Notes under the pieces: generated by a model
What the model saw: only the letters and a program-made list of their open reading frames with translations
What the model was told of the DNA's origin: nothing
Database searches by the model: none
Shown: in pieces, positions 5,477 through 26,004 of the stretch
Layout of the letters: every line of letters begins with the position of its first letter
Position numbering within the stretch: the first letter of the stretch is position 1
DNA from: an uncultured Muribaculaceae bacterium
Lineage (GTDB): Bacteria > Bacillota_I > Bacilli_A > RF39 > UBA660
Reading direction: 5' to 3'
NCBI GenBank assembly: GCA_964546995.1
Contig: CAZJKO010000003.1
Coordinates: forward strand, 1 to 49,024
DNA length: 49,024 nucleotides
Position numbers and translations under genes: made by a program

Positions 5477-7713
5477 AAAAAATAGGATATCTGTTCTTCT
5501 TTTCGGTATGTGCGTTTTTTCTCTATACGGATGTTTTTGCGGTCGAGTTACCGAATACGACAAATGTTTGTCCAACACCGGAAGAATTTGATAAGTACGA
5601 TGTTCATCATATTTATACATTGAATGAAGCAGATAACGGGAAGTTAAAGTTTGAAGTTTCTACTTCGAGTGATAATACTTACATTGCTAGGTTTCATCGA
5701 ATGCAGGGAATTTCTGTTTTGGATGTGAATACGGGACAGAGGTATTATCCAGATGACTATGGTAACATTTCCATCTTTGGCATTCGTGGTGGTAGTAGTG
5801 TTCGTTATGAGTTCTTTATTGCCGATCAAGCGAGTCCTTGTGTCAACCATAAGCTTGGATCTTTGGATACCTACGTGCGGCCTATTACGCGAAATCAACT
5901 TTATGGAAGTACGGCTTGTCAGAATTACATTACGCAGTGTGGAAGTGATGCGAAGAGTCGGGAAGCGGTTCCTATGTGTTTTGAAGAGTTTATTACTGGT
6001 AGTCAATACGATTATGCTAGTACGACTCGGATGATTGAGACGGTTACTGCGGGGTGTCGAACGAATTACGATGATACAGAGGCAGTAAAAGGGCAAACGA
6101 CAACACTTTGGTGTGAATACGACAATAGTAAAAACAATGCGTCGTTTCGTCATAATGCCAATTATTCGAGTTACGAATATTGTAGAGTCGATTGTACGGA
6201 GACTCTTCGAATCAGTTACGATAGTCCGATTGCCACAGTAGCAGGACTTGGATTTCAATATCAACTTAGGCTTAGTTCTGATGTTAGTTGTAATGTAACG
6301 ACGACGAAGGTTCCTGTTCGTCCAACGGTTTGTGTACCAACTTGTTCTTGTAATGGTGGTAAATACAACAATGATAACGATACCCATGGAGGACCGAATG
6401 AAGCGTTCGATAGTTGTGTAAAACAATGTGATGGTGGTAAATATACACAAGGATGTATCGATTCTTGCTATCAAGATGTGTACGTATTAAAGAAAGATTT
6501 TAAGGGTCTATCTTATCAGAACAAAACTTCCTTCTCTCAAAATACATTTGGAGGAACGTTTGTTACGTGGATCGATAGTGTTGGATGTTCGCATGCTGAC
6601 GACTGTGATGCAACTTGTTCTTTGACGAGTTGTCCTGCTGACAGTGTTGAAACGGATGCGGAAGCAGATGCGATTTATGCTTCTCGAGTTGCTCAAGCTG
6701 AAGCGGATCATGCTAGTTGTAGTGCCGATGCCTCAGGAGCTTCTTCAGATCTTACTGGAAAGGATCACTATCAAGCGACGGTCTTGAATCCAGTGACGGA
6801 AGAAAACAAGTTCGAATATGGTTCTCTTACGGTCGGAGGTAGTGGTAGTAGTGTAACGATCGATTTTCCACAGGCTTATATCGATAAAGAGACGGGTGTT
6901 ATTTACTATCATAGAAAGAGCTTGAAAAAAGAGTCACAGTATTATTACGATGGTGGAACGAAGTTCTACACGTCGATTAAGACTCCTAGTACTAACCGTG
7001 TTCTTAGTTGGCCTCTTCCCCTTACTAGTGCCGATCATAATTTTAATACGAACGCCGTTCGTTGGAACATTTTAGAGAATATTCGTAACATCGGTGTGTG
7101 GGGACAATGGAACATTAATGTTAACTGTTTCTATGGTTTGGTGAATAAATATTATTGTGATGATGAAAATTGTCCTGAAGATACGATCGAGGGAGGTCTA
7201 CAATACATTTTTAGGCCGATCGATTTAGAGGATGTGTTCCCGAACGATCGCAATCCTAGATGGAACTGGTCGTGTGGAGCAACCTCTACTTGGAAGGGTG
7301 GGCGTTATCCGATTACGCCGGTCTCTTTAACAGATCGCATTGAGAGTCAAGGCAATGAGATTTACGATGTTTCGAAAGAAGATACGTATCTCGATTACCA
7401 TATTTATTTAAATACTGATACGATGAGACAGATTCGAAATTACAATTCGGATAAAGGTAGTTACGGTAAAAACGATAATTACTGTGTGAAAGATGGTAAT
7501 CGTACAGTATGTAAGAGTGGACTTCTAGATGAATTAGAGAAGATGAGTGGAGTTGTTTTAAAACGAAATACTCAACTGATTGGATGCAATAATCCTAAGG
7601 GAAATCAATGTGACTACAATCGTGATGTTTCGCAGTGTGTTACTTACTTTAGAGGAAATAATTACGACATTGTCGATTGTAAAACAGTAGAACATATCGA
7701 GGTGGATCAATGA
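5473..7713 (+). CDS. Large secreted cysteine-rich protein of unknown function
   Basis: 746 aa with a signal peptide MKKIGYLFFFSVCAFFLYTDVFA/VE. I count about 32 Cys in the mature part, including clustered CxxC-like stretches (CVPTCSCNGGKY...CVKQCDGGKYTQGCIDSC; CSHADDCDATCSLTSC). No LPXTG-type C-terminus and no TM. Translationally coupled on both sides (ATGA overlaps). Confidence 0.75.
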   Translation: MKKIGYLFFFSVCAFFLYTDVFAVELPNTTNVCPTPEEFDKYDVHHIYTLNEADNGKLKFEVSTSSDNTYIARFHRMQGISVLDVNTGQRYYPDDYGNISIFGIRGGSSVRYEFFIADQASPCVNHKLGSLDTYVRPITRNQLYGSTACQNYITQCGSDAKSREAVPMCFEEFITGSQYDYASTTRMIETVTAGCRTNYDDTEAVKGQTTTLWCEYDNSKNNASFRHNANYSSYEYCRVDCTETLRISYDSPIATVAGLGFQYQLRLSSDVSCNVTTTKVPVRPTVCVPTCSCNGGKYNNDNDTHGGPNEAFDSCVKQCDGGKYTQGCIDSCYQDVYVLKKDFKGLSYQNKTSFSQNTFGGTFVTWIDSVGCSHADDCDATCSLTSCPADSVETDAEADAIYASRVAQAEADHASCSADASGASSDLTGKDHYQATVLNPVTEENKFEYGSLTVGGSGSSVTIDFPQAYIDKETGVIYYHRKSLKKESQYYYDGGTKFYTSIKTPSTNRVLSWPLPLTSADHNFNTNAVRWNILENIRNIGVWGQWNINVNCFYGLVNKYYCDDENCPEDTIEGGLQYIFRPIDLEDVFPNDRNPRWNWSCGATSTWKGGRYPITPVSLTDRIESQGNEIYDVSKEDTYLDYHIYLNTDTMRQIRNYNSDKGSYGKNDNYCVKDGNRTVCKSGLLDELEKMSGVVLKRNTQLIGCNNPKGNQCDYNRDVSQCVTYFRGNNYDIVDCKTVEHIEVDQ

Positions 7714-8159
7714 ATAGAGCAGTGATGGCCGCAGGAATTGTGGCGCTTGGGATATTGACATTTGTGTTAATTAACGTGATATCGAATTATCAACAAGGAA
7801 ATGAACTCGATTGGTCCTTGCTTAAAGATACGACGGAGGCAGCGATGATTGACGCTGTCGACGTTGGGTACTATCGAATGAATGGACAAGTTCGAATCGA
7901 TAAAGAGAAGTTTATCGAGAGCTTTATCCGAAGATTTAGTCAGTCTGTCAATTACGATCGTAATTACGATTTGAAATTTTATGATATAAATGAAACACCA
8001 CCGAAAGTAAGTATTCAAGTTGGAAGTGATACGTCTGTTACATTCAATAGCGAAACACTTACGATTCGGAATCGAATTGATGGAATATTAGAAACCAAAT
8101 ACGATGAAAACCGTATTTTGGAACAATTAATGAGAGAAGGGAAATTGAATTATGAATAA
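7710..8159 (+). CDS. Membrane-anchored pilus-associated protein (TadE/TadG-like pseudopilin candidate)
   Basis: 149 aa. The N-terminus MNRAVMAAGIVALGILTFVLINV is a short leader plus a single hydrophobic helix, and the rest is soluble. It overlaps the upstream gene by 4 nt and the cpaB-like gene by 8 nt. Confidence 0.45.
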   Translation: MNRAVMAAGIVALGILTFVLINVISNYQQGNELDWSLLKDTTEAAMIDAVDVGYYRMNGQVRIDKEKFIESFIRRFSQSVNYDRNYDLKFYDINETPPKVSIQVGSDTSVTFNSETLTIRNRIDGILETKYDENRILEQLMREGKLNYE

Positions 8160-8958
8160 TCTAATTGTTGGAATCAAAAAGTTTTTTACAAACAAAAATA
8201 CTGTTACCGTCATTGGGGTATTAGCAGCGGTACTTGTTCTTTATGTTGGATACAACATGAGAATTAGTAGTGCCATTAATCCCGTTACGGTAGCCTATGC
8301 AAAACAGACGATCGATCCTGGTACGAAAATTACTGCTGATATGATTGGGACGATGCAAGTACCTCCTGCTATGTTAAAAGGAGAAGTACTTCGAAATCCT
8401 AGCGATGTTGTCGGAAAATATGCTAATTCCGATAGTATTATCCCTGCTGGAAGTTTATTCTATGCTAGAATTGTTGTACCAAAAGAACAACTTCCTACAG
8501 GAGGCATTTTAGAGTATCCTGATGGGTATGTTCTCTATAACTTCCCAATCGATGTTGAATCTTCTTATGGTAACTCTATTTTTCCAGGTAACTATATCGA
8601 TATCTATTTGAAAGCAATCAATAAACTAGATGCTGCTGATCCGAATCAAAGAGATAAGATCATGGTTGGTAAGTTAATTCAAAATGTCAAAGTATTAGCT
8701 GTTAAAGATAGTAATGGAGATCCTGTATTCTCTAATTTAGAAGAGAAGAAGACACCAGCTATGATGGTATTTGCTGTTCCTGAAGAATACCATATCTTAC
8801 TTCGTAAAGCGAGCTTCTTAAGAGCATACGATACGACGTTAATTCCTGTTCCTACAGCAGAAAGCTTAAAAGAGGAACCAGGCGAAGTACAAATTAGTAG
8901 TGAAGATTTAAAGAACTTTATTAATTCTGTTACCGTTTGGACTGATACTGTACAATAG
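8152..8958 (+). CDS. cpaB: Flp pilus assembly protein CpaB/RcpC-like (SAF domain)
   Basis: 268 aa with an N-terminal TM (VTVIGVLAAVLVLYVGY). This is followed by a SAF-like segment VAYAKQTIDPGTKITADMIGTMQVPPAMLKGEVLRNPSDVVGKYANSDSIIPAGSLF, typical of CpaB. It lies directly upstream of the secretion ATPase. Confidence 0.7.
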   Translation: MNNLIVGIKKFFTNKNTVTVIGVLAAVLVLYVGYNMRISSAINPVTVAYAKQTIDPGTKITADMIGTMQVPPAMLKGEVLRNPSDVVGKYANSDSIIPAGSLFYARIVVPKEQLPTGGILEYPDGYVLYNFPIDVESSYGNSIFPGNYIDIYLKAINKLDAADPNQRDKIMVGKLIQNVKVLAVKDSNGDPVFSNLEEKKTPAMMVFAVPEEYHILLRKASFLRAYDTTLIPVPTAESLKEEPGEVQISSEDLKNFINSVTVWTDTVQ

Positions 8959-8967
8959 TGAGAGGAT

Positions 8968-10092
8968 GTGGAACATTTGAGAGAGAGTATTTTTGAACAA
9001 ATCGATTTTGGACCATTTAAAGAGTACATTGAAAACGATGATATTACCGATATTTCTTATAGCAACAATGGACAAACTTGGGTGAGATCTCTTACCCAAG
9101 GATCCATGCGTGTAGAGATACCAGGACTTAGTAATACTTTTGTTGAAAAGCTTGCCTTTCAGTGTTCTAATGTAATGGGAACTTCCTTTAATAATGCGAA
9201 TCCCTTTTTGGATGCCGAGAGTACAGAACTCCGTATGAATTTCTTGCACGAGTCGATTGCTACCAATGGGATTGCACTCGTTATCCGTAAGACGCCTGCT
9301 AAGATTCGTCTCGAAAAAGAGAAACTCTTAGAAGAAGATTACGTTTCTTTGGACATTCACGACTTTTTAGTTAAGTGTGTCGAAGGGCACTGTAACATCA
9401 TCGTCAGTGGAGAGACGGGTAGTGGTAAGACGGAGTTCGTTAAATACTTAGCTAGTCATACGAAAACAAATGAAAAGATCATCACGATCGAGGATACCCT
9501 CGAGTTACATTTGGACCGAATTTTTCCTGAACGTGATATCGTTGCCATGAAGACGAACAATGTGGCCAGTTACACTGATGTGTTGGTCGCTTGTATGAGA
9601 CAGAATCCAAAATGGATTTTGTTATCCGAAATTCGTAGTGCAGAAGCGGTTAGTGCTGCTCGTAACTCCATTTCCTCTGGACACAACATTTTATCCACTA
9701 TTCATGCGGATAAAGCAAGCGCGATTCCTTATCGTATGTACAGTTTGATGGAAACGGACCTCGATGTCAATCAGTTCCTTGCAACGATTTATCGCTACAT
9801 TCAACTAGGTGTCCACATCAAAGCATACTACAGTCAAAAATATCAGAAATTCCATCGTGAAATTGACGAAGTCGTCGAATTCTATGTCGATGAGAACAAT
9901 CAACCACAGTCGAGAGTTCTCTATCAAAAAGGATTCGAAAAAACGCCAGTTCAAAATGCTCCTAGTAAGTATTTACTAGAATATTTGAGCAATCAGGGAA
10001 TTTCAATTAATCAAAGTTCTACTACGGCAACTACGAATACTTTACCTAAGGGTACCAGTGAAAAGACAGTTGCTTTAGAAGATATCATCTAA
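8968..10092 (+). CDS. tadA: Type II/IV secretion ATPase, TadA/CpaF (VirB11 superfamily)
   Basis: 374 aa with a GTG start. Walker A IVSGETGSGKTEF, Asp box ITIEDTLEL, Walker B-like KWILLSEIRSAEA, and His box SGHNILSTIHAD. It is followed by two T2SSF-topology genes. Confidence 0.85.
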   Translation: MEHLRESIFEQIDFGPFKEYIENDDITDISYSNNGQTWVRSLTQGSMRVEIPGLSNTFVEKLAFQCSNVMGTSFNNANPFLDAESTELRMNFLHESIATNGIALVIRKTPAKIRLEKEKLLEEDYVSLDIHDFLVKCVEGHCNIIVSGETGSGKTEFVKYLASHTKTNEKIITIEDTLELHLDRIFPERDIVAMKTNNVASYTDVLVACMRQNPKWILLSEIRSAEAVSAARNSISSGHNILSTIHADKASAIPYRMYSLMETDLDVNQFLATIYRYIQLGVHIKAYYSQKYQKFHREIDEVVEFYVDENNQPQSRVLYQKGFEKTPVQNAPSKYLLEYLSNQGISINQSSTTATTNTLPKGTSEKTVALEDII

Positions 10093-10110
10093 AAGAAGAG
10101 GTGAAGAAAA

Positions 10111-11004
10111 ATGGTGTTATTCTTATTACTTGTCATAGCTATATTCATTATTTTATATCGTAATTATAAAGGGCGAAATATCTATAAATATATTATTCAT
10201 CAAGCAGGAAGTCTCTACGATAAATATGCACCATATTCTTTCAAAGTGGTCAGAGAGAAAACGAAAGAGTTGGGTCAAGAGTATACGGCAAGACAGTACT
10301 TGGTTCAAATTGTGACCTTTTCTGTTTTTGCAGGGGTTGTATCTTATATATACTTTTACAATTTGCTCGTTTGTATTTTCTATATTGTCATTGTGGATTT
10401 GACGATTCCATATCTTGCATATTTAAGGTGTAAGAGGGTCTATAGTGAGTTCATTTTTGAACAAGTACAAGTATATACGACCAATGTTATTATGGAATTT
10501 GCAACGACACAATCTTTTGTTAAATCACTAGAAGGAGTAAGAAATTCAGGTGTGTTAGAAGATCCTGTATTAAGTGATGTTTCTTATATGATCGAACTTG
10601 CTTATCAAAATGGTAGCATCGATGAATCGATTGCTTACATGAACGATAAATATCCTTACTACATCGTGAAAAACATGCATCAGTTGTTTTTACAAATTAC
10701 GAAAGAAGGAGCAAGGGATACGGGAGAGAGTCTTGATAATATGCAACTCGATATCGATATGCTTATTGAGAGTGTCTATCGCGATCGAATCGAACGTGCA
10801 ACCTTTCATAAATCGTTTATCAAATATGGTATTATGCTCTATTTGATGGTTATGTTGGTTCAATACTTGTTGGGTAGAGAAACGTATATCGATCTTTTAG
10901 ATCGATGGTACATGAAACTAGTGTTACATGCTATTTTAATTGTTAACAGTTACTTTCTTCTTAAGGGAGAAAAATATTATAACGAGAACGTAGGTGAAGA
11001 GTAG
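10111..11004 (+). CDS. tadB: TadB-like pilus assembly platform protein (T2SSF topology)
   Basis: 297 aa. Topology is an N-terminal TM, a TM pair, a ~140-aa cytoplasmic helical domain (…VKSLEGVRNSGVLEDPVLSDV…IDESIAYMNDKYP…), then C-terminal TMs. It lies immediately after the ATPase, with an AAGAGGTGA RBS. Confidence 0.65.
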   Translation: MVLFLLLVIAIFIILYRNYKGRNIYKYIIHQAGSLYDKYAPYSFKVVREKTKELGQEYTARQYLVQIVTFSVFAGVVSYIYFYNLLVCIFYIVIVDLTIPYLAYLRCKRVYSEFIFEQVQVYTTNVIMEFATTQSFVKSLEGVRNSGVLEDPVLSDVSYMIELAYQNGSIDESIAYMNDKYPYYIVKNMHQLFLQITKEGARDTGESLDNMQLDIDMLIESVYRDRIERATFHKSFIKYGIMLYLMVMLVQYLLGRETYIDLLDRWYMKLVLHAILIVNSYFLLKGEKYYNENVGEE

Positions 11005-11786
11005 TGGAAGTATTTATTGTTGGTGTTATTCTTGTATTTGTTCTCGTCTATAATAAAACGATCGATAGTAAGAAGTTTATTCTAGATAATAAAAAATATT
11101 TTGAATTGTTACGAGAAGATGATTACAATTTTCTAGTTTATGCGAAATATGGTGATTCTGTCGATGCCGATAAGTTGTTTCAGAAACGAATCAATAGTGC
11201 GTTTTTAACAGCAGTGCTCTTTCTATTTATCTTTTTGACTCAACTTAGTCTTTTGAATGTTACTTTATCGATTGTCATCGGTTACTTCGTCTTTAAATCT
11301 TCCTATATGAGTTTAAAGAAGTACTATAAGGCACATTTGCATGAAATCGACATTATGTTACCATACTATTTAAAGAGTCTTGAAATTTTGGTACAACACT
11401 ATACGGTTCCTGTTGCACTTGGAAAAAGTATTGGGGATGCACCAGATATTTTTAAACCTGGATTACGTGATTTGATTGCGAAAATCGATGCAGGTGATGC
11501 TAGTATCGATCCTTATATGGAATTTGCCAATCAATATCCAGTTAGAGATTCAATGAGAATGATGCGTCTTTTATATCGTCTTGGTATCGGTTCTCAAGAA
11601 AAGAAACAAGAACGATTATTAATGTTCTCAAGAACAGTTTCTTCTTTACAAAACAAAGCACGGGAAACCAAATATAAAGAACGTCTTAACTTTATGGAAA
11701 ATCAAACGATGGTTATGTTAGTTGTTACTGGTATTGGGGTAATGATTATCATCTTAGTTTCGATGTTTATGTTATTTCAAGTGTAG
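11004..11786 (+). CDS. tadC: TadC-like pilus assembly platform protein (T2SSF topology)
   Basis: 260 aa. The GTG start overlaps the upstream stop by 1 nt (TAGTG). TMs flank a cytoplasmic domain (MLPYYLKSLEILVQHYTVPVALGKSIGDAPDIFKPGLRDLIAKIDAGDASIDPYMEFANQYP), consistent with the TadC/T2SSF pattern. Confidence 0.65.
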   Translation: MEVFIVGVILVFVLVYNKTIDSKKFILDNKKYFELLREDDYNFLVYAKYGDSVDADKLFQKRINSAFLTAVLFLFIFLTQLSLLNVTLSIVIGYFVFKSSYMSLKKYYKAHLHEIDIMLPYYLKSLEILVQHYTVPVALGKSIGDAPDIFKPGLRDLIAKIDAGDASIDPYMEFANQYPVRDSMRMMRLLYRLGIGSQEKKQERLLMFSRTVSSLQNKARETKYKERLNFMENQTMVMLVVTGIGVMIIILVSMFMLFQV

Positions 11787-11852
11787 GGATTGAAAAAGCG
11801 AATACTCTTTGTTATAATAGAAATGTTAGGATAGGAAAGGAGTTGGAAGAGT

Positions 11853-12059
11853 TTGAAAGCTGCTACAGGTGAATTAAACTTAACTGTTATTACGATTATT
11901 GCGATTGGAGCGGTACTTGCCTTTTTCTGGGCATTTTGGCCTACCATTCAAAATACGATTTTAGGACAATGGAACAATGCAACAGAAGAAAAAGAAAACA
12001 GTGGATTAAATACAATTGGATATATTACAGCTGGGGATTACACGATGTATATTCGTTAA
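11853..12059 (+). CDS. Flp-like small pilin candidate
   Basis: 68 aa with a TTG start 10 nt after GGAAAGGAG (11834-11842). A short leader MKAATG is followed by ELNLTVITIIAIGAVLAFFWAFW (about 20 hydrophobic residues), which is a class III signal-like layout. The canonical Flp G/xxxxEY motif is not present. Confidence 0.5.
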   Translation: MKAATGELNLTVITIIAIGAVLAFFWAFWPTIQNTILGQWNNATEEKENSGLNTIGYITAGDYTMYIR

Positions 12060-12086
12060 AAGAAAGTATAAGAAGAAGGTGTTTTT

Positions 12087-12566
12087 GTGAGAGATGCAAT
12101 CGGTGGAGCAATGACCATACAAATTATTATTATCTTTTTGTTACTGATCAATGGATATTTAGCGTTTTCTGTTAATTATACGAAGGCATTTCGGACGAAA
12201 AACCAAATTATCAGTATTATTGAACAACACGAAGGTTTGACGCCTCCAGCACAGGAGAAAATTCGAAGTTATTTAACACAGGCTCACTATAAAGTTGGAG
12301 CAGAATACTTTCGAAAAGCAGAGCAAAAAGGGTACGTTTGTTTTGAAGGAGGGTACTGTGTTAAAGTAACGGCAATCGATGATACAGGATCTAACGATCC
12401 TGGTAATACTTATCGAGGAAGTTATTATAGTGTCATTACTTTCGTGAATATCGATGTACCGATCATTAACAAAATATTTCCATTTTTTGATGTGTTTCAA
12501 GTAAAAGGGGAAACAAAGACGATCTATAGTTCTGGTAACAATAGTGAACTAGAACCGATCGGATAA
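12087..12566 (+). CDS. TadE-like pseudopilin candidate
   Basis: 159 aa with a GTG start. The N-terminus MRDAIGGAMTIQIIIIFLLLINGYLAFSVNY (leader ending in GG plus one hydrophobic helix) is followed by a soluble domain. It lies between the pilin-like ORF and the TadZ-like gene. Confidence 0.45.
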   Translation: MRDAIGGAMTIQIIIIFLLLINGYLAFSVNYTKAFRTKNQIISIIEQHEGLTPPAQEKIRSYLTQAHYKVGAEYFRKAEQKGYVCFEGGYCVKVTAIDDTGSNDPGNTYRGSYYSVITFVNIDVPIINKIFPFFDVFQVKGETKTIYSSGNNSELEPIG

Positions 12567-12584
12567 AAGAAGGGAGGAAAACGT

Positions 12585-13565: not shown

Positions 13566-13577
13566 CATGGAAAAGAA

Positions 13578-13607
13578 TTGACAAATATCTCATTTATGAG
13601 GTATGAT
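13578..13607 (+). promoter_or_regulatory. Sigma-A type promoter candidate for the T4SS pilin gene
   Basis: TTGACA (13578-13583), 18-nt spacer, TATGAT (13602-13607). RBS AAAGGAGGA is at 13619-13627 and the ATG at 13634. Confidence 0.55.
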
Positions 13608-13633
13608 TAAGTTATCTTAAAGGAGGAACAAAA

Positions 13634-13978
13634 ATGTTAGATTTATTTCAGTTATTAGCTTGTGATCCTGATTTAGCACCACTTATTACTCTTTTAAAAG
13701 GTGTTTTAAATCTTATTCAAGTAGCAATTCCTATCATTCTTATTATCATGGGATCAATCGATTTAGGAAAAGCAGTTATTTCAAGTGATGAAAAAGAAAT
13801 TAAAGCGGCAACGAGTAAATTGATTAAGCGTTGTATCGCAGCAGTTGCGGTATTCCTTATTTCTACTATTGTTAGCTTAGTTATGAATTTGGTAGCTAAT
13901 TCCGATGTATCTATTGGTGAAGAATACACATGGAAAGATTGTTGGAATAACAATAGTGCGGCTGCAAATAAGAATTAA
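13634..13978 (+). CDS. VirB2/TrbC-like type IV secretion pilin (Firmicute T4SS_pilin type)
   Basis: 114 aa with two hydrophobic helices flanking a polar loop: LIQVAIPIILIIMGSIDLGKAVISSDEKEIKAATSKLIKRCIAAVAVFLISTIV. This is the pattern of Gram-positive TrbC/VirB2-like pilins (family recalled from memory). About 45% identical by eye to the C-terminus of 15822-17087. Confidence 0.65.
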   Translation: MLDLFQLLACDPDLAPLITLLKGVLNLIQVAIPIILIIMGSIDLGKAVISSDEKEIKAATSKLIKRCIAAVAVFLISTIVSLVMNLVANSDVSIGEEYTWKDCWNNNSAAANKN

Positions 13979-15240: not shown

Positions 15241-15250
15241 AAACAAGTTA

Positions 15251-15300
15251 AAATAGTAACAAATCAAGTAACAATAGTAACAAATCAAGTAACAATAGTA
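15251..15300. repeat. 21-bp tandem direct repeat, 2.4 copies
   Basis: AATAGTAACAAATCAAGTAAC occurs at 15251-15271 and identically at 15272-15292, then as a partial AATAGTAA at 15293-15300. A degenerate copy (aacaagttaa) lies just upstream. The repeat starts 11 nt after the stop at 15240. Confidence 0.85.
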
Positions 15301-15305
15301 ATCGA

Positions 15306-15334
15306 CTTGATAAAAGTACGTTTTCATGCTATTA
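15306..15334 (+). promoter_or_regulatory. Candidate promoter inside the non-coding hub
   Basis: TTGATA (15306-15311), 17-nt spacer, TATTAT (15329-15334). No ORF of useful length follows it. Confidence 0.3.
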
Positions 15335-18805: not shown

Positions 18806-19120
18806 GTGAATAATCAATATTTGATTCCTGCTAATACCAAGAAAGGGCGACTTATCTTTGGGTTCTTTCGACCGATTGATCTTACTATCTTTTTGATCGG
18901 AATCGTGGTTTCCTTTATTTTGGTGGCAATACTAGGAGCTGATAATACAACACTTGTTTTGATCATTTTGGCTCCTGCACTTATTTGTGCATTTTTGGTT
19001 ATGCCTGTACCGAATTATCATAATATGTTGGTTATTTTGACAGAAGCTTGGCAATTTATTACGACAAGACAAAAGTTTATATGGAAAGGTTGGTGTAGTT
19101 TACATGGCGAAGACGAATAG
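18806..19120 (+). CDS. PrgI/TcpE-type (VirB3-like) small T4SS membrane protein
   Basis: 104 aa with a GTG start. IPANTKKGRLIFGFFRPIDLTIFLIGIVVSFIL plus a second TM matches the PrgI-family layout. It overlaps the VirB4 N-terminal ORF by 17 nt. Confidence 0.6.
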   Translation: MNNQYLIPANTKKGRLIFGFFRPIDLTIFLIGIVVSFILVAILGADNTTLVLIILAPALICAFLVMPVPNYHNMLVILTEAWQFITTRQKFIWKGWCSLHGEDE

Positions 19121-19652
19121 ATCTAAGTATACGGAGGATTGGGTTCCTGTTCAATCCATTATTAATGGAATGATTTTATTACAAAATGGACAAAGGGTGA
19201 CAGGTGTAAAAATTGTTCCTCGTAATATTTTCATTTTAGATCAGGATGCTCAGACGAATGTGTTGATTCAATTAAAGAATTTTTACAATATGTTGGATTT
19301 TGAATTTTGGGTTGTGGTTGCAGATCGACCTGTCGATATTTCTGTTTATTTATCACAGCTTCAACTTCTTTACAATTCGACGCAGAGTCCTGTGATTCGT
19401 AAGATGATCAATGAAGATATTCAGAAAGGTAATACGTTTATGAATAATAGTATTGTGGATACAGAGTACTATATTCTATTTAAAGAGAAGAATATGGAGC
19501 TTATTCAAAAGAGAATTCGTCTTTTGATTAATGGGTTAGCAGGATGCGGGCTTAATTCTTCACAGACTAGTAATGATGATTTGAGAATTGTACTCGATAA
19601 CTTCTTAAATGGAGGACGGACGACAGAATTTGGAACGGTGGTGCCACAATGA
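19104..19652 (+). CDS. virB4: VirB4-type ATPase, N-terminal domain encoded as a separate ORF
   Basis: 182 aa. WVPVQSIINGMILLQNGQRVTGVKIVPRNIFILDQDAQTNVLIQLKNFYNMLDFEFWVVVADRPVDI follows the pattern of the N-terminal domain of Gram-positive VirB4 proteins (TcpF/PrgJ type). Its stop TGA (19650-19652) overlaps the next ATG (19649). Confidence 0.6.
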   Translation: MAKTNRSKYTEDWVPVQSIINGMILLQNGQRVTGVKIVPRNIFILDQDAQTNVLIQLKNFYNMLDFEFWVVVADRPVDISVYLSQLQLLYNSTQSPVIRKMINEDIQKGNTFMNNSIVDTEYYILFKEKNMELIQKRIRLLINGLAGCGLNSSQTSNDDLRIVLDNFLNGGRTTEFGTVVPQ

Positions 19653-21439
19653 GTTTAAAGTTTAAATCGCAGATTGCTCCTAAGGGATTGCAATTTAATG
19701 CAAGTGATTTCTTTATTAGTGATAAGTATGCAACGATTTTAAGTGTAATATCTTTTCCTAAGATGATTATGCCAGGGTACTTATCTAATTTGACGAGTAT
19801 GCCAGGTATCAAGATTGTCATTAAACACATTCCCGTTCCTTTTTCGACGATTTCTAAGATGTTGAATCGACAAGTTGCTGATTTACGTCAACGTTACCAA
19901 GAGGAAAGAGATCATACGTTACAAGAGAAGATTCGACAAGATGCTGAATCGCTTGAATACTTTACGTCGATGCTTGCTTCTAGTCAAGCACGTATCTTTG
20001 ACTTTCAAATGCACATTATGATTACGGCTGATTCGAAAGATGAACTAGAACTTAAGAAGACGAATGTAAAGAACTATCTCGATGCAATGGAATTAAAAGC
20101 TATAGCGCTTCGTTTTGAACAAGAGAAAGTACTAAAGAGTATTTTACCAATCTTTCCAAAGCAAGATGTGGAGGATCGAATTGGAACACCGATTCCTTCT
20201 GTTACGATTGCAGCCATGTATCCCTTTATTTTTGATAGTATTAAAGATCCAGGACTTTCTACTTTGTTAGGTGTCGATTTCTCTGGTGGTGTTATCCTCT
20301 TTAATCAGTTCTTATATCAAATTCGTAAAGAGAACAATCGTAATAATGCGAATCTCGTTATTCTTGGTACTTCAGGGTCTGGTAAGTCGACTGCTGCAAA
20401 ACTTATTTTGCGGGGACACATTCGTAATGGTTGTCAGATTGTGGCAATCGATCCTGAAAATGAATTATCTGAGATGACGAAGCTTTATGGGGGAGATACG
20501 ATCGACCTTGGTAAGGGTGGAGAATATGGTATGATCAACCCTCTTGAAGTAATTATCGATGCCGATGAAGATGAGATGAAGCAAGGACTTGGATATACCG
20601 TTCTTACTCGTACGTTACAATTTTTAAAGGCTTTTATGAAGTACTATGATCCATCGATCGAAGAAGATGTTCTTACGTTGTTTAGCGAAGTGGTTCAGGA
20701 TACATATAAGCGTTTTCAAATCGATTTTGATACGGATTTTACGAAGTTTACTTCGAAAGATTATCCAACGTTCAAAGATGTGTATGCGACAATTAAGGGG
20801 AAACTTATGGCTATGACAGAGCATACGCATGAAAGAGATATTATGGAACGTCTTGAATTAAAGGTTCGTCCTTTGACTAAGGAACTTAAATATTACTTTG
20901 ATGGTCATACGACGATTGCTTCCGATAGTGATTTTATCGTGTTTAATATCAAAGAGTTAATGAATGCCGATTTAAATATTCGTAATGCGTTGTTCTTTAA
21001 TGTATTAAAGTACGCTTGGGGACTTTGTTTGGATACGGGAGTCAATACGGCTTTGGTTGTCGATGAAGCCCATGTATTGTTGTCTGGTAACAATGCGCTC
21101 GGTGCGGATTTCTTGGCACAAGTACAACGTCGTGCTCGTAAATACAATACTGGTACAATCGTTATTACTCAACAACCTAGCGATTTCTGTGATCCACAGG
21201 TTATTACACAGGGAAAAGCGATTTTTGATAATGCATCGTACTATTTAGTTATGGGACTTCGTAAACAAGCAGTCGAAGATTTATCGTTACTAATCGACTT
21301 AAATGATAACGAAAAAGAAAGTATTAAGCGTTATTCACAAGGAGAAGCATTATTCGTCTGTGGTAGTAGACGTATGCGTATTAATGTGGTCGTTACTCCT
21401 GAAGAATTAGATTCCTTTGGTAGTGGAGGAGGATTCTAG
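19649..21439 (+). CDS. virB4: VirB4-type T4SS ATPase, central and C-terminal ATPase part
   Basis: 596 aa with Walker A LGTSGSGKSTAAK and Walker B ALVVDEAHVLL. The N-terminal IAPKGLQFNASDFFISDKYATILSVISFPK is typical of the VirB4 middle domain. It lies after the VirB3-like gene. Confidence 0.85.
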   Translation: MSLKFKSQIAPKGLQFNASDFFISDKYATILSVISFPKMIMPGYLSNLTSMPGIKIVIKHIPVPFSTISKMLNRQVADLRQRYQEERDHTLQEKIRQDAESLEYFTSMLASSQARIFDFQMHIMITADSKDELELKKTNVKNYLDAMELKAIALRFEQEKVLKSILPIFPKQDVEDRIGTPIPSVTIAAMYPFIFDSIKDPGLSTLLGVDFSGGVILFNQFLYQIRKENNRNNANLVILGTSGSGKSTAAKLILRGHIRNGCQIVAIDPENELSEMTKLYGGDTIDLGKGGEYGMINPLEVIIDADEDEMKQGLGYTVLTRTLQFLKAFMKYYDPSIEEDVLTLFSEVVQDTYKRFQIDFDTDFTKFTSKDYPTFKDVYATIKGKLMAMTEHTHERDIMERLELKVRPLTKELKYYFDGHTTIASDSDFIVFNIKELMNADLNIRNALFFNVLKYAWGLCLDTGVNTALVVDEAHVLLSGNNALGADFLAQVQRRARKYNTGTIVITQQPSDFCDPQVITQGKAIFDNASYYLVMGLRKQAVEDLSLLIDLNDNEKESIKRYSQGEALFVCGSRRMRINVVVTPEELDSFGSGGGF

Positions 21440-21466: not shown

Positions 21467-23092
21467 ATGAAAATGAAGCTTATTAAAGAGATGTTAAAAG
21501 ATCCTAAGACTTTGATTAAGATTAAAGTTGGTGTAGCTTTAGGAGGACTTGCTACCATCTTGGTTCTTTTACTTGTCGTTGCTGCTGCTTTACTTTCACC
21601 AATTAGAGCAGGTGTAGAGGTATTCGAAAATGTTTCAAATGCGACTTCTGCGATTGCTCAGAAGCTTGGTAATTTCTTTACATTACGTGGATGGAAGACA
21701 GATAAGGAAGCAGAAGAACAGGATGAGAGAGATTTCTATAATGAACTTGAGAATGTAAGAGAAGAGTTTAGTCGGAAATATGGGGTAGAAATTGATACAG
21801 ATCTTATTTTAGCGACGATTTTTTATGGAGAAAGTATTAAGGATTATTTGGATATTTATGAGGTTTGTAATAATCCGAATAGTAATCCTCTTCAAGTTAT
21901 TAGGCCGAATCGAGATATCGACTGTTCTGAGTTTACTGCTGATCCTACAGCACTTCACGATTGGAAGACCGCGAAGAAACAAATTAAAGTTTTGGCTTCT
22001 TACCAGGTTGCAGATAATTATTATCAGTATGGTAAGACGGATGGTTGGGCATGTGACGATATGCCGACAGGAATCTATCTTGTTGGGCGTGACATTCCTG
22101 TTACACCAGGCTTTGATCATGAGTCACAGTATGCTTGGCAGGTAGCAAAAAATGATGGCGATTTTACTTTGTTTGGTATCACTTTCTTTACTTGGGAACA
22201 AAATATTCGCTACTATAGAATTTTTGTTCCTAAAAAAGAAGATGAATTCGGCAATATGGTTTGTCCTCCTTTGGATGAAGCTTTAGAAACTTTGGGACTT
22301 AAAAGTGAACATATTTATACTCTTGAAGTAGATGAAGGACATGAGCGAACCGAACCGACGGGTGTCTATTATTGGAATTTGGTCGATGAACCGAATACGG
22401 AGAGTGATACTAGACCTAGTTTTGTCGATGGTTGGTATGAAGATTATTTGAAGAGTGCTCCAGAAGGGGTTACTTTAGAAGAACGCAAGAAAGAGTTAAC
22501 GTTTAACATTTACGAATTTGTTCGTGCTGGACTTGCAGATCATTATGCTTATCGTAGTCCTTATTCTGGTGTTGGTGAAGAAAATTTTGGTGATATTGAT
22601 TTCATTTCTCGTAATGACAGTATAGAAGGATTAGATGATGCTTTTTATACGACGATGAGTAATCCTTTTTATGCATCTGGTATTTATGGGGGCTATAATC
22701 CATATCAGTGTACGACTTACGTTTATGGTCGTGTTTCTGAAGTGTTGGCAGAGAATGGTATATCCGGTAATTTAAATGTTTCAGGGCATGCTGGAAATTG
22801 GTATAGCAACAATTTAAATAAGGGTTCTAGTGGATATCCATCGTCTTCTAATGCAGGTGCACCAAAGGCGGGTTCAATCGCTGTTTTTGGCGGAGGTCCT
22901 GGTGGATATGGACATGTTGTGTTTGTGGAAAAAGTAAATCCTGATGGTACGATCGATATTTCGGAAGGTAATGTTCGTGGAACGAACAATAAATATGGGT
23001 ATCGTTATACAGCGGGAATTGATCCGAATAGTTCGCAATTTAAGAGTTTGTATGGTCTGAATTTTACAGGATATATTTATACATTCGATTAG
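21467..23092 (+). CDS. Membrane-anchored cell-wall hydrolase with a C-terminal CHAP domain (VirB1 functional analog)
   Basis: 541 aa with an N-terminal TM (VGVALGGLATILVLLLVVAAALL). The C-terminal CHAP motifs are NPYQCTTYVYGRV (Cys), GHVVFVEKV (His) and ISEGNV. The N-terminal ~380 aa is unassigned. Confidence 0.75.
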   Translation: MKMKLIKEMLKDPKTLIKIKVGVALGGLATILVLLLVVAAALLSPIRAGVEVFENVSNATSAIAQKLGNFFTLRGWKTDKEAEEQDERDFYNELENVREEFSRKYGVEIDTDLILATIFYGESIKDYLDIYEVCNNPNSNPLQVIRPNRDIDCSEFTADPTALHDWKTAKKQIKVLASYQVADNYYQYGKTDGWACDDMPTGIYLVGRDIPVTPGFDHESQYAWQVAKNDGDFTLFGITFFTWEQNIRYYRIFVPKKEDEFGNMVCPPLDEALETLGLKSEHIYTLEVDEGHERTEPTGVYYWNLVDEPNTESDTRPSFVDGWYEDYLKSAPEGVTLEERKKELTFNIYEFVRAGLADHYAYRSPYSGVGEENFGDIDFISRNDSIEGLDDAFYTTMSNPFYASGIYGGYNPYQCTTYVYGRVSEVLAENGISGNLNVSGHAGNWYSNNLNKGSSGYPSSSNAGAPKAGSIAVFGGGPGGYGHVVFVEKVNPDGTIDISEGNVRGTNNKYGYRYTAGIDPNSSQFKSLYGLNFTGYIYTFD

Positions 23093-23108: not shown

Positions 23109-23765
23109 GTGAAAAAAATTGGTTTACTTTTGATTCTCCTTTTCTTTGTGACTGGGTGTGGGATGCATTATGAAGTGGAGTTAAAAGATGGTGTTGTGAC
23201 GGAGAATTCCTACATTACGATTTTGAATCAAGATATTAAGGGTGGTAGCGTCTATAAGACGTTTGATGAAATGATTATGAAATATGATCCTATTCATGAT
23301 TTTTTACCTACTTATCATACAGAAGAGTTGATGGGGGATTCTTCATCGACATTAAAAATTATGGGAGAATATTATCCGAAAGATTATCAAAATTCTATAC
23401 CACTTGGGCTTTGTTATCGTAGCGCTCAAGCTTTGCAAGATGGAGATATTTTCGAGATTCGTACGGATCAGAGGTTTACTTGTTTTGATGATTATCGTGA
23501 ACTTGATTCTGTTAAGGTGACGTTTAAGACAGAATATAAAGTGTTACATCACAATGCAGATTCAACTAAGAATGGGGTTTATACTTGGAATATTACTTCT
23601 GATAATGCTTCTTATAAGCCGATTGAATTGAAAGTTGATACTTCGAAAAAAGAGGTAGTCAAAAATCCTTATTTGGGTTATTATATAGGTGGTTTGGTTC
23701 TTGTCGGTGCAGGAGTTTTGATTTTGTTTATTAAAAGAAAGCAAGAATCGATAAATCGTATTTAA
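23109..23765 (+). CDS. Lipoprotein with a C-terminal TM plus basic tail (sorting-signal-like)
   Basis: 218 aa with a GTG start and a lipobox LLFFVTG/C. The C-terminus reads VKNPYLG-YYIGGLVLVGAGVLILFI-KRKQESINRI. Confidence 0.65.
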   Translation: MKKIGLLLILLFFVTGCGMHYEVELKDGVVTENSYITILNQDIKGGSVYKTFDEMIMKYDPIHDFLPTYHTEELMGDSSSTLKIMGEYYPKDYQNSIPLGLCYRSAQALQDGDIFEIRTDQRFTCFDDYRELDSVKVTFKTEYKVLHHNADSTKNGVYTWNITSDNASYKPIELKVDTSKKEVVKNPYLGYYIGGLVLVGAGVLILFIKRKQESINRI

Positions 23766-23778: not shown

Positions 23779-26004
23779 ATGAAATTTAAATTTAGAGCGG
23801 AACCTCAAGATATTCTTATTTTTATTCTGTTTGCTATCTTTCTTTTGTATGTAGTAGCGATTGGGGTTATCAATTTGTCAAGTTTTGCTCTCGATGGGGA
23901 ATTTGCGGGATTAAATCCTCTTCCTGCTTTTTCTTCTCGTTATTTAACAGCGACACTTACGTTTTACTTTCTTTTTCTAGCAGGGTTATTTATTGCGGTT
24001 AGTTCTTACTTTTTTGAAAGAGAAAAGGGTTTTGGTATTACGACAGATAAGAAGGATAAAGGTTACAGTCGTTGGGCTAAAGATAAGGAAATGCAAGCTC
24101 AACTTGAAGTGGTTTATCCTACTAATGAGACAGCAAATGCTGCAGGGGTTCCTTTGATTTTGAAGGAAAACGAAGTTTGGGTTGACAATGGAGAGTTTCA
24201 TACCCTTGTGATTGGTGCTACAGGTAGTGGTAAGACACAGACGGTGATTTTGCCTACGGTTAAGTTACTTTCTAAAGCAGGAGAGAGTATGATTATTACC
24301 GATCCTAAGGGTGAGATTTACGAAAAGACTTCTTCGATGTTAAGAGATAAGGGGTACAATATTTTGCTTCTTAACTTTCGTGATCCACAGCAAGGTAATG
24401 CGTGGAATCCTCTTACCCTTCCTTATCAGATGTATAAATCGGGTAATCAAGATAAAGCGATAGAACTTTTGGACGATTTGGCATTAAACATTTTGTATGA
24501 AGAGAACAATGGTAATGCTGATCCCTTTTGGGAGAAGACATCTGCCGATTATTTTTCGGGACTTGCTTTAGGATTGTTTGAAGATGCCAAAGAAGAAGAG
24601 ATCAATATCAATAGTATTAGTTTGATGACAACGGTAGGAGAAGAAAAATTTGGGGGAACTACTTATGTTAAAGAATATTTTAATGCTAAGGACCCTAATA
24701 GTGCTGCTGCGATTAATGCTTCGAGTACGATTCTTGCTCCTAATGAAACAAGGGGTAGTATTTTAGCTGTTTTTAAACAGAAGATTAAGCTTTTTGCTTC
24801 ACGTGAGAATTTATCTGAAATGCTTTCTTATAGCGATTTTGATTTTGAGAGTATTGGTGAAAAAAAGACGGCTGTTTTCATTATTGTGCAAGATGAGAAG
24901 AAGACGTATCATTCGTTGGTTACGATTTTCTTGAAACAGTGTTATGAAACTTTGATTCGAGTGGCACAAGAGCATGGTGGAAGTCTTCCGATTCGTACCA
25001 ATTTCTTACTCGATGAGTTTGCGAATATGCCACCATTAAAAGATGTTACGACAATGATCACTGCTGCACGATCTAGAAGAATTCGGTTTACGATGATTAT
25101 TCAAAACTTTGCTCAATTAAACCAGGTGTATGGAAAAGAAAATGCGGAAACGATTAAAGGTAACTGTGGTAATATTATCTATTTAATTAGTACAGAGCTT
25201 GCAGCTCTTGAAGAGATTAGTAAAATGTGTGGGGAAGTGAAGTCTAAAAAAGATGATAAGACGGCTTCGACACCTTTGGTTACGGTTAGTGATCTTCAAC
25301 GTATGAAACAGTTTGATACGATCATTTTAAGAATGAGAACACAACCGTTTCGGACGAAGATGACTCCCGATTTTAAGATGAATTGGGGAAAGAGTTACGA
25401 GCTTGGAACGTACCCACAACGTGAAAAACGTCCCGTTTCCATTTTTGATATTCGTGAATTTGTGAAAGAGAAGAAGCGACAGAAATTATTCGAAATGATG
25501 GATCAATCTTCTAGTGGTGGTGCTACTAATCATCTTCCACCATTTACACCACCGAATATGCTTCAACCGGAACAAAGACCAGTTTCGCCTATTCCAAATC
25601 AAATGCCTTTTGCTTCTTCTAATCCTTTCGATCTCGATGATATGGTTCGTAAGATCGATATGAAGATTGCAGAAATTGAAGCAGAAGAAAAAAGAAATAA
25701 GCAAGAACAGGAAGAAAAACGGAAAAGGGGAATCGATCCGTATCGCGATTTTTCTGATTCGAATGCTTCGGTTCGAGATTTACCTAAAAGAAGCGTTAAA
25801 GCGGAACCTCCTAAGAAGGAGCATCTTACGATTGAAAAGGTCGAGAAGCCTATTATTACGAATCCACCAAAGATGGAAGAAAAGGTTACGATTCATCATG
25901 AAAATTTACCGAAAGAGGAAGCGAAACCTGCTTCTAATCTGGTCTTATCTGATGAAGAAGAGGACGATACGTTCTTCGATGACTTTTTTGACGATGAAGA
26001 TTGA
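23779..26004 (+). CDS. virD4: VirD4/TraG-type type IV coupling protein
   Basis: 741 aa with two N-terminal TMs. Motifs: Walker A VIGATGSGKTQTV, TDPKGE, GNAWNPL, Walker B FLLDEFANMP, IIQNFAQL. A ~175-aa low-complexity Pro/Lys/Glu-rich tail ends in DEEEDDTFFDDFFDDED. Confidence 0.85.
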   Translation: MKFKFRAEPQDILIFILFAIFLLYVVAIGVINLSSFALDGEFAGLNPLPAFSSRYLTATLTFYFLFLAGLFIAVSSYFFEREKGFGITTDKKDKGYSRWAKDKEMQAQLEVVYPTNETANAAGVPLILKENEVWVDNGEFHTLVIGATGSGKTQTVILPTVKLLSKAGESMIITDPKGEIYEKTSSMLRDKGYNILLLNFRDPQQGNAWNPLTLPYQMYKSGNQDKAIELLDDLALNILYEENNGNADPFWEKTSADYFSGLALGLFEDAKEEEININSISLMTTVGEEKFGGTTYVKEYFNAKDPNSAAAINASSTILAPNETRGSILAVFKQKIKLFASRENLSEMLSYSDFDFESIGEKKTAVFIIVQDEKKTYHSLVTIFLKQCYETLIRVAQEHGGSLPIRTNFLLDEFANMPPLKDVTTMITAARSRRIRFTMIIQNFAQLNQVYGKENAETIKGNCGNIIYLISTELAALEEISKMCGEVKSKKDDKTASTPLVTVSDLQRMKQFDTIILRMRTQPFRTKMTPDFKMNWGKSYELGTYPQREKRPVSIFDIREFVKEKKRQKLFEMMDQSSSGGATNHLPPFTPPNMLQPEQRPVSPIPNQMPFASSNPFDLDDMVRKIDMKIAEIEAEEKRNKQEQEEKRKRGIDPYRDFSDSNASVRDLPKRSVKAEPPKKEHLTIEKVEKPIITNPPKMEEKVTIHHENLPKEEAKPASNLVLSDEEEDDTFFDDFFDDED

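Follow-up and report, generated by a model that had tools for sequence, protein, structure and literature searches.

A chromosomal operon of uncultured gut Bacilli that combines a putative type-IV-filament-like module with a monoderm type IV secretion system

We analyzed a 49,024-nucleotide stretch of DNA (the window; contig CAZJKO010000003.1 of assembly GCA_964546995.1, from an uncultured bacterium of the GTDB lineage RF39; UBA660) and found that its positions 1301 to 26004 hold one tight array of 22 open reading frames (ORFs; g01 to g22). All of these ORFs are on the plus strand, with overlaps of 4 to 8 nt or short gaps, and those listed in a first-pass annotation made by a model from the sequence alone had been placed correctly. 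Genes for surface proteins and a sortase B-like enzyme come first, followed by genes for a DUF5411 protein, CpaB, a secretion ATPase, a pair of membrane proteins, and small proteins with an N-terminal transmembrane (TM) helix, and then by a monoderm type IV secretion system (T4SS). Sequence comparisons indicate that this ~25-kb array is very probably one vertically inherited composite chromosomal locus related to plasmid systems; it appears to be a domesticated relative of the conjugation machinery of the pLS20 and pBMB67 plasmids and of the integrative conjugative elements (ICEs) of Mollicutes. The fuller explanation, in which the inherited composite operon also makes a filament and performs contact-dependent transfer, is the one we consider probable, with some reserve.

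Relatives of the ATPase (g07) were present in at least 485 species-level genomes in a scan that used one genome per species; the best 80 loci, in which this protein is 72 to 82% identical to that of the window, were fetched and inspected. All of the matching genomes are metagenome-assembled genomes (MAGs) of uncultured Bacilli that live in the gut of humans, rabbits, ruminants, chickens, or mice, with the public labels "uncultured Bacilli/Tenericutes," "Mycoplasma sp. CAG:877," and "Ca. Onthousia"; we take this lineage to be an RF39/RFN20-type clade. Metagenomes contain thousands of ATPase relatives at 76% identity or more. The gene order from g01 to the VirB4 gene was identical in 80 of 80 loci, as far as each contig reaches; chance cannot plausibly account for this layout. 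Seeding another scan with VirD4 recovered the same order from VirB4 to VirD4, and a rhodanese-DedA-RmuC flank follows in many species; the upstream flanks of relatives include genes for a thioredoxin-like lipoprotein, GreA, and BipA. Nothing relevant on T4SSs, Tad, or pili in RF39-type bacteria was found in the literature.

In pairwise identity among relatives, VirB4 and VirD4 diverge in step with the flanking RmuC (rho 0.73; Mantel p 5e-4), and the ATPase does so with VirB4 (rho 0.81; Mantel p ≤ 0.001; 50 taxa), indicating that both halves of the array descended together with the chromosome and that neither was inserted independently. Conservation of the ATPases equals or exceeds that of RmuC and is far above that of rhodanese or DedA, which points to strong purifying selection on the locus. 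Pfam matches of the major ORFs of the window included no integrase and no relaxase family, in agreement with the first-pass annotation; a relaxase was also missing from the gene lists of the relatives' flanks, although one could lie elsewhere in the genome. The window contains no tRNA gene, and no att-like or flanking direct repeats were found. These observations argue against the conjugative element that had been proposed: the locus is very probably neither conjugative nor otherwise mobile and belongs instead to the chromosome of a large lineage, in which its synteny is kept. Independent insertion of a T4SS beside a core Tad block could have left a scar at 13566-13633 or 15241-15821; such a scar was considered and rejected, since gene order is conserved and repeats are lacking. 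The proposal that the two blocks form one unit is thus upheld by their constant linkage, by their co-divergence, and by the homologous modules on pLS20 and pBMB67.

The array appears to be a single operon. The sole intergenic gap that separates its halves, between g12 and g13, measures 68 bp (13566-13633), as annotated before. A terminator-like hairpin with a T-run at the VirD4 stop (26003-26022, plus strand; consensus match only) is likely to mark the 3' end of the operon. The strongest plus-strand promoter-like match (11790-11818) lies directly upstream of g10, and another promoter-like site (13578-13607) precedes g13; promoter and terminator scans of the window gave no enrichment over shuffled sequence, and single sites are hints. 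Upstream of g01, a 397-aa ORF at 6-1199, which has no Pfam match and is possibly cut by the window start, is without a counterpart in any fetched locus, so the upstream junction here differs from that of the relatives.

The T4SS half (g13 to g22) corresponds to the Gram-positive set named in the first-pass annotation, of which the VirB6-like, VirB4, CHAP, and VirD4 proteins are backed by profiles; the ORFs at 14071-15240, 15822-17087, and 19104-19652 (g14, g15, and g18) had been left out of that list. The putative VirB2-like pilin g13 (13634-13978), with two TM helices, scored 24.5 bits against T4SS_pilin, just under the gathering threshold (GA) of 26.6, and weakly matched Mbov_0395; 15 of the 26 members of its family match T4SS_pilin at E ≤ 0.01. 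The protein g15 (15822-17087), variable in length among relatives, combines a secreted domain with a C-terminal VirB2-like two-TM module that resembles g13 and cross-matches with it. A VirB6/TrbL-like channel protein of the pLS20_p028/Mbov_0396 type is encoded by g16 (17102-18787; TrbL_4, 35.1 bits, GA 27), with NCBIfam scores of 48 bits for pLS20_p028 and 31 bits for Mbov_0396, both below cutoff. The next three proteins tile the fused 894-aa VirB4 model of Mycoplasma ICEs, Mbov_0397, end to end. These are g17 (18806-19120; model positions 2-93), a small VirB3/PrgI-like membrane protein with weak VirB3 evidence and a blastp match to a PrgI-family protein of pBMB67 (E 1.4e-4); g18 (19104-19652; positions 98-276, E 1.4e-13), a separate, TraC-like VirB4 N-terminal domain, whose homologues match PF26593 (TraC-like) and which itself matches a 227-aa pBMB67 protein (E 1.9e-15); and g19 (19649-21439; positions 294-890, 349.6 bits), the VirB4 ATPase, which also matches P-loop_TraG, AAA_10, and CD1110 (175 bits). 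The VirB4 proteins of relatives are 72 to 86% identical to that of the window, which is 29% identical to that of pBMB67 (E 5e-85).

The remaining genes of this half encode envelope and coupling proteins. A membrane-anchored CHAP peptidoglycan hydrolase in the VirB1 role (g20, 21467-23092; CHAP, 70.8 bits) is poorly conserved, with few tblastn matches among relatives. The lipoprotein g21 (23109-23765), which has a C-terminal TM anchor, is replaced in some relatives by a 260-aa protein with an N-terminal TM helix, and either of the two could fill a VirB8/TcpC-like role. The C-terminus of g21 (NPYLG-TM-KRK) was considered as a sortase substrate and rejected, since relatives conserve only the TM anchor and the basic tail. 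The VirD4 coupling protein g22 (23779-26004) matches T4SS-DNA_transf (211.5 bits) and the NCBIfam CD1115 family (308 bits; cutoff 250) and is 60 to 78% identical among relatives and 33% identical to the VirD4 of pBMB67. Its acidic tail (25400-26004) is long, of low complexity, and rich in E, K, and P, with the final residues DDTFFDDFFDDED; the tail is variable, since relatives cease to align at about residue 580-730. CedB and CedD models match VirD4 and VirB4 weakly, and the MOB-suite label of the pLS20 and pBMB67 records is MPF_T.

The other half (g05 to g12; 7710-13565) had been described as seven tightly packed ORFs that match a Tad parts list. The tight packing stands, but there are eight ORFs, the first of which (g05, 7710-8159) had gone unnamed. 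Of the list, CpaB and the ATPase superfamily are supported by Pfam and the platform pair indirectly, whereas the Flp and TadE assignments failed and TadZ was not demonstrated. The protein g05, an N-terminal TM helix with a small domain, matches DUF5411 (E 1.2e-49) and pLS20 p36 (gene 36; E 5.7e-4); its 134-aa counterpart on pBMB67 (h134) matches DUF5411 at 26 bits. DUF5411 matches VirB8 weakly (E 0.03), and there was no profile match for a VirB8/TcpC-like scaffold. The CpaB/RcpC-like g06 (8152-8958) exceeds the Pfam GAs for RcpC (33.0 bits; GA 28.8) and SAF (30.0 bits; GA 21), falls below the cutoff of the equivalog TIGR03177 (48.9 bits; cutoff 71), and is 32% identical to the SAF protein of pBMB67 (E 2e-29). 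The hexameric-type secretion ATPase g07 (8968-10092), of the CpaF/VirB11 family (T2SSE, 102.8 bits), has all of its catalytic boxes intact in the translation (i.e., Walker A GETGSGKT, Asp box, Walker B, and His box). Its NCBIfam matches were all below cutoff (VirB11 TIGR02788, 118.6 bits; TadA-type TIGR03819, 94 bits; FlaI, 91 bits), and the matched ranges align its N-terminal half to the TadA and FlaI models but not to VirB11. In tblastn comparisons with plasmid proteins, CpaF (69-90 bits) and VirB11 (66-95 bits) scored alike. This protein has 374 aa here and 460 to 625 aa in many close relatives, apparently through a C-terminal extension; either g07 is a short form or the relatives have added a domain.

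The polytopic membrane proteins g08 (10111-11004; TadB-like platform candidate) and g09 (11004-11786; in the TadC-like position) had been assigned a T2SSF topology. Even with permissive E-values, T2SSF (PF00482) matched neither g08 and g09 themselves nor 26 relatives, 10 distant homologs, or their counterparts on pBMB67, and profile searches of the PDB were likewise empty. An intermediate provides the link: the g08 family aligns with the 305-aa pBMB67 protein h305 (hhalign Prob 91%), which in turn aligns with TadB/TadC of three Tad loci (Prob 94.7%, E 6e-8). Similarly, g09 aligns with the neighbor of h305, the 244-aa h244 (Prob 94.3%), and with the family of p39, the product of pLS20 gene 39 and its homologue (Prob 95.2%, E 2.5e-8). 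The alignment of g08 with p38 is weaker (Prob 36%), and p38 and p39 of the plasmid family are themselves paralogous (Prob 77%). An AlphaFold (AF2) model of g08 reached a pLDDT of 81 with a deeper alignment that included distant representatives (52 with a shallow alignment), and its sole compact Foldseek matches were the cytoplasmic domains of EpsF (3c1q/2vmb) and OutF (5nbg), with a prob of 0.87-0.90, a TM score of 0.63-0.65, and an rmsd of 3.5-3.9. Because the h305 intermediate and the structure model agree, we accept g08 and g09 as a remote, divergent GspF/TadB-type platform pair.

Three further genes complete this half. The 68-aa pilin-like g10 (11853-12059) has a near-invariant N-terminus (consensus MKAATGELNLTVIT in an alignment of 25 sequences), followed by a hydrophobic helix; it matched no Flp family in Pfam or NCBIfam, and its hhalign Prob to Streptomyces Flp was 0.2%. 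The 159-aa g11 (12087-12566), an N-terminal-TM protein in a minor-pilin-like position, appears to relate to p40 (pLS20 gene 40) and DUF4320 and not to TadE: its alignment matches the p40 family (Prob 61%, E 8e-5), p40 matches DUF4320 of pBMB67 (Prob 94.8%), and TadE (PF07811) gave no Pfam match and a Prob of 0.3%. The 326-aa cytoplasmic protein g12 (12585-13565) is a TadZ candidate by its position and a degenerate P-loop-like stretch. It had no Pfam or PDB match and hhalign Probs of 0.3% to TadZ and 2% to the ParA-like AAA_31 protein of pBMB67; 1 of the 26 members of its family matches AAA_31 (E 0.02). A g12-like gene also occurs in a distant lineage (L177; 43% identity), together with genes for CpaB and g08-like and g09-like proteins. 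In that locus (L177:9209-14539), a minus-strand PedC-like thioredoxin gene is followed by CpaB, the g08-like, g09-like, and g12-like genes, and a 582-aa ORF; no ATPase gene separates CpaB from the platform genes, and the locus lies beside ribosomal protein and ECF transporter genes. On these comparisons, the module is best called type-IV-filament-like (Tad-like), not a member of the Tad family.

The array opens with surface proteins. The first conserved gene, g01 (1301-2872), encodes a polytopic N-terminus and an extracellular domain (DUF4352, 23.5 bits, below GA) and has homologs of 30 to 52% identity in the same position among relatives. The conserved position of g02 (2885-4699) is occupied by a surface protein that is anchored at its N-terminus and has a bacterial Ig-like domain (Bact_surface_Ig-like, 58.8 bits). 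Its N-terminal domain is paralogous to g14 (14071-15240), a 389-aa N-terminally anchored extracellular protein, and a repeat (D2) joins 2998-3039 and 14259-14300. The gene g14 lies between the two VirB2-like genes in the window and after VirD4 in many relatives (e.g., L098:12502-13680 and L108:12664-13764). An unusual 580-bp noncoding gap (to 15821), which opens with a 21-nt tandem duplication (15241-15282), follows g14 and is probably a trace of its relocation. The sortase B-like transpeptidase g03 (4715-5476), kept in relatives, has the LITC catalytic motif; the earlier assignment to class B holds at the level of Pfam Sortase (28.2 bits; GA 26.6) but not at that of the NCBIfam SrtB model (52 bits; cutoff 153). 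The accompanying idea of sortase-handled surface proteins did not hold, as the translations of the large upstream proteins showed no C-terminal cell wall sorting signal. The large secreted protein g04 (5473-7713), with a signal peptide, many Cys residues, and no Pfam match, is conserved in position (21 to 53% identity among relatives); its C-terminus is weakly similar to the Tie adhesin of pLS20 (E 0.003), the position of which it holds, making it a candidate adhesin. In 18 of 43 relatives, g01 has a divergent neighbor immediately upstream that encodes a thioredoxin-like lipoprotein, a possible source of disulfide bonds in the Cys-rich g04. One relative (L008:379-1677) carries an extra ORF resembling the g04 C-terminus and a DUF5411 gene upstream of g01, and its best DUF5411 match is this upstream copy, not a gene between g04 and CpaB.

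The closest described systems are plasmid borne. The best plasmid matches of the ATPase are in the pLS20 family (34% identity, to gene 37), and others are on Listeria plasmids and in Bacillus anthracis plasmid records, including one of pXO2 size. The pLS20 operon of Bacillus subtilis (genes 34 to 54; the family also includes pBV71 and plasmids of Brochothrix, Peribacillus, and Terribacillus) is collinear with the array. It runs from the Tie adhesin through a 126-aa DUF5411-like protein, the ATPase (37), two membrane proteins of ~250 aa (38 and 39), and TM proteins of 120 and 47 aa (40 and 41) to a 76-aa VirB2-like protein, VirD4, VirB6 (p028), a VirB3-like DUF5592 protein, a 192-aa protein, and VirB4. 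Homology to the window was shown for the ATPase, p39, p40, VirB4, and VirD4 and was weaker for p36, p38, and VirB6. Unlike the window locus, the pLS20 operon is on a plasmid whose record also holds a MobP2-family relaxase (mobL), is under Rco/Rap/Phr regulation (PMC8557374), lacks CpaB, g12, and the sortase, has a different adhesin (with a thioester domain), and places VirD4 before VirB6. On pBMB67 of Bacillus thuringiensis (NC_009841; similar plasmids occur in this species), the closest plasmid relatives of VirB4 and VirD4 are accompanied by DUF5411, SAF/CpaB, the ATPase, two membrane proteins (E 4e-8 and 9e-9), a small TM protein, and DUF4320. It differs in being a plasmid with a MobP3 relaxase, on which the modules are ~8 kb apart, the T4SS preceding the pilus-like module, and a ParA-type AAA_31 protein sits between CpaB and the ATPase, near the TadZ place that g12 occupies in the window.

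The combined architecture is therefore not new, contrary to the first-pass annotation: the pLS20 conjugation operon contains the ATPase, the membrane protein pair, and small TM proteins, and the full CpaB/ParA/ATPase/platform set lies on pBMB67. The pairing of a pilus-like module with a T4SS is thus already present, largely unremarked, in known Bacillus conjugative plasmids. In the literature, pLS20 gene 37 is a "putative VirB11" and genes 38 to 47 are of no known function (PMC8557374), a VirB11 homolog is reported on pAW63 (PMC9673590), and the description of pBMB67 is limited to a VirB/D4-homologous module (PMC9673590). Gram-positive elements are said to form no conjugative pili (PMC8557374; PMC8470214); for pBV71, "type IV pilus" is used loosely, and pilus-like structures were seen by electron microscopy (PMC8121941). 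The pBV71 operon includes a thermonuclease, and the pLS20 homolog is reported to require fluid conditions for transfer (PMC11730352). Two points are new: in uncultured gut Bacilli, the system is fixed on the chromosome across the lineage and without a relaxase, and the "VirB11 block" of Gram-positive T4SSs is recognized as a type-IV-filament-like module.

More distant systems share parts of the arrangement. The T4SS of Mycoplasma ICEs (Mbov_0395/0396/0397) has the same order of pilin-like protein, VirB6-like TM protein, and VirB4, but all window scores are below the cutoffs of these families, and VirB3, the N-domain, and the ATPase, which are fused in the Mycoplasma ICE model, are separate genes in the window; these ICEs presumably have a DDE recombinase and no CpaF/VirB11 module. 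Canonical Tad/Flp loci (Caulobacter Cpa, Aggregatibacter, and Bifidobacterium) resemble the window in the order of CpaB, ATPase, platform paralogs, small pilin, and minor-pilin-like protein, in the CpaB domain and ATPase superfamily, and in remote platform homology. In contrast to them, the window module has no Flp motif, TadE Pfam match, TadV peptidase, or demonstrable TadZ, its platform is invisible to PF00482, and it lies inside a T4SS operon. A Tad locus on a Streptomyces plasmid has a comparable order (SAF, hypothetical protein, CpaF, two T2SSF proteins, small ORF, and TadE). Operons of DUF5411, CpaF, and PilC/GspF have been predicted as a new system in the Clostridia Roseburia, Ruminococcus, and Eubacterium (Miller et al. 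2022; PMC9523054); as in the window, DUF5411 in these gut Firmicutes neighbors a platform protein and a CpaF-type ATPase, but the paper describes no T4SS genes in the operons. The likeness to IncI1 R64, in which a type IVb thin pilus serves a conjugative T4SS in liquid mating, is a functional analogy, as R64 is plasmid borne in a diderm and its Pil proteins belong to a different pilus class. The T4SS-like and type IV pilus genes of Saccharibacteria and the Ups pilus and Ced importer of Sulfolobus are likewise analogies, not homologous loci.

Beyond 26 kb, the window is ordinary chromosome, with genes for rhodanese, DedA, RmuC, toxin-antitoxin pairs, ABC-F, RluB/RluD, LspA, and signal peptidase. 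A RelB/YafQ toxin-antitoxin pair and a SocA/Panacea-domain antitoxin are found there (30293-30872 and 34776-36092), the latter followed by two small ORFs that have no family match and are possibly its toxin partner. The sole sizeable minus-strand block of the window (35744-38682) has three genes, with BadF/BcrA-type activase and DUF2229/HGD-D matches, and is 2-hydroxyacyl-CoA dehydratase-like. A block at 39508-42591 encodes a staphylococcal-type nuclease, a thioredoxin/TraF-like protein (Pfam TraF, 26.8 bits) that is related to the lipoprotein found upstream of g01 in relatives, a bacterial PH-domain protein, and a 415-aa protein; in one relative (L105:15430-18365), the nuclease/TraF-like block is only ~3 kb downstream of VirD4.

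The locus holds three intact ATPases, a hydrolase, channel proteins, two kinds of pilin-like proteins, and several large surface proteins. In the mechanism that we propose, the ATPase, the platform pair, and CpaB would build a short filament or piston from g10 and g11. This filament, together with the Cys-rich and Ig-like surface proteins g01, g02, g04, and g14, would contact another cell, after which VirD4, VirB4, and VirB6 would carry a macromolecule across the envelope. The balance tips slightly toward the existence of a filament. DNA is the most likely cargo, yet as a claim of its own this falls a little short of an even chance, and the direction of movement is likewise conjectural. The membrane nuclease and TraF-like thioredoxin loosely associated with the locus fit DNA handling without proving it, as does the thermonuclease in the pBV71 operon. 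Because there is no relaxase or integrase, the locus is chromosomally fixed, and the RF39 lineage is described as genome reduced and auxotrophic (cited in PMC12306168), we expect the system to serve its own cell, by DNA exchange or uptake or by contact-dependent acquisition from neighbors, and not the spread of an element.

Several observations weigh against this explanation. Pfam, NCBIfam, and PDB gave no sequence support for T2SSF, Flp, TadE, or TadZ in g08 to g12, and the best NCBIfam match of the ATPase is VirB11. Direct hhalign comparisons with TadB/TadC of three bona fide Tad loci were weak (Prob ≤ 23%), the Foldseek E-values for the g08 model were all >1, and the N-terminus of g10 has Gly6-Glu7 but lacks the EY of the Flp motif G/xxxxEY. 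An A24 prepilin peptidase (TadV/CpaA) was absent, as first annotated, from the Pfam matches of the major window ORFs and also from the gene lists of the relatives' flanks, although it could be encoded elsewhere in the genome. A VirD4 without a relaxase also fits protein-effector T4SSs. The "core" status of the locus is provisional, as it is drawn from the at least 485 matches listed. In one relative (L038:1-8359; contig CAZWZO010000025.1), g04 to g09 lead straight to rhodanese-DedA-RmuC, and everything between the pilin-like g10 and VirD4, both included, is missing; the contig is misassembled, or else a natural deletion has left this relative with only the ATPase/platform half.

The most serious competitor is that the ATPase is the plain VirB11 of the T4SS and that g05 to g12 are lineage-specific accessory membrane proteins that make no filament. 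The NCBIfam result, the treatment of the homologs as VirB11 in the pLS20 paper (PMC8557374) and the pAW63 review (PMC9673590), the lack of profile support for T2SSF, Flp, TadE, and TadZ, and the missing peptidase all fit this view. Against them, Gram-negative VirB11 comes without CpaB or a paralogous polytopic pair, CpaB passes its Pfam GA, h305 ties the pair to TadB/TadC, the fold match is to cytoplasmic domains of the GspF family, pBMB67 has its ParA-type protein in the TadZ position, and the N-terminal half of the ATPase aligns to the TadA/FlaI models; we regard this competitor as unlikely, though not negligible. Somewhat less probable still is a contact-dependent protein-effector or lytic system, on the model of the bacteria-killing T4SS of Xanthomonas, in which VirD4 would send toxins or enzymes into bacteria or host cells for nutrients without DNA transfer. 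A relaxase-less VirD4 in a lineage reported to be genome reduced and auxotrophic (PMC12306168) would suit such a system, as would the hydrolase and surface proteins, which are the fastest-evolving parts, as expected of target-facing components. No recognizable effector or immunity genes lie in or beside the locus, the close characterized homologs all move DNA (pLS20), and the nuclease and TraF-like thioredoxin fit DNA handling at least as well; protein would in any case be one possible cargo within our explanation and not an exclusive alternative to it.

The remaining two explanations concern the unity and mobility of the locus. Two independent neighbors, a colonization pilus and a separate T4SS, would accord with the promoter-like sites before g10 and g13, which allow sub-operons, and with the distance between the modules on pBMB67. 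However, the halves are linked in every relative examined, co-diverge strongly, form one operon in the pLS20 family, and are separated here by a single 68-bp gap, and g14 shifts between them in different species, which makes this arrangement very improbable. An ICE, or the remnant of one, moving between genomes is about as improbable and is largely refuted. Every component has homologs among the conjugation genes of pLS20, pBMB67, and Mycoplasma ICEs, VirD4 is kept, and RelB/YafQ and Panacea-type toxin-antitoxin genes lie 4 to 9 kb downstream, but relaxase, integrase, tRNA, and att repeats were not found, the housekeeping flanks are common to the species, VirB4 and VirD4 diverge with the flanking RmuC, and the relatives are 60 to 86% identical, not near-identical, across at least 485 species.

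The locus is a concrete and highly conserved candidate for how prevalent, uncultured, small-genome gut Bacilli interact with other cells, and it could guide coculture or enrichment. It is also a case of domesticated conjugation machinery, in which a relaxase-less T4SS has become a vertically inherited chromosomal trait in a monoderm. For the plasmids, the "VirB11 plus unknown genes" block of pLS20, pAW63, and pBMB67 has fuller family versions with CpaB, a ParA-type protein, a TadB/TadC-like pair, and pilin-like proteins; the absence of pili in Gram-positive conjugation thus becomes directly testable in B. subtilis. Elsewhere, too, small-genome or specialized cells have retained T4SS-type ATPases on the chromosome, along with type IV filaments, to associate with other cells and to acquire DNA or nutrients (PMC12206443 and PMC7427843). 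A bolder and rather unlikely possibility is that the locus is the central lifestyle organelle of this genome-reduced lineage, a conjugation machine that was taken over from a pLS20/pBMB67-like plasmid, lost its relaxase, and is maintained by strong purifying selection. It would attach to other cells by a Gram-positive type-IV-filament-like fiber and import or exchange DNA or other macromolecules that the cell cannot make, much as the type IV pili and T4SS of Saccharibacteria, or Ups/Ced of Sulfolobus, may function. In that event, pLS20 genes 36 to 41 would build a true conjugative filament, overturning the pilus-less view of Gram-positive conjugation.

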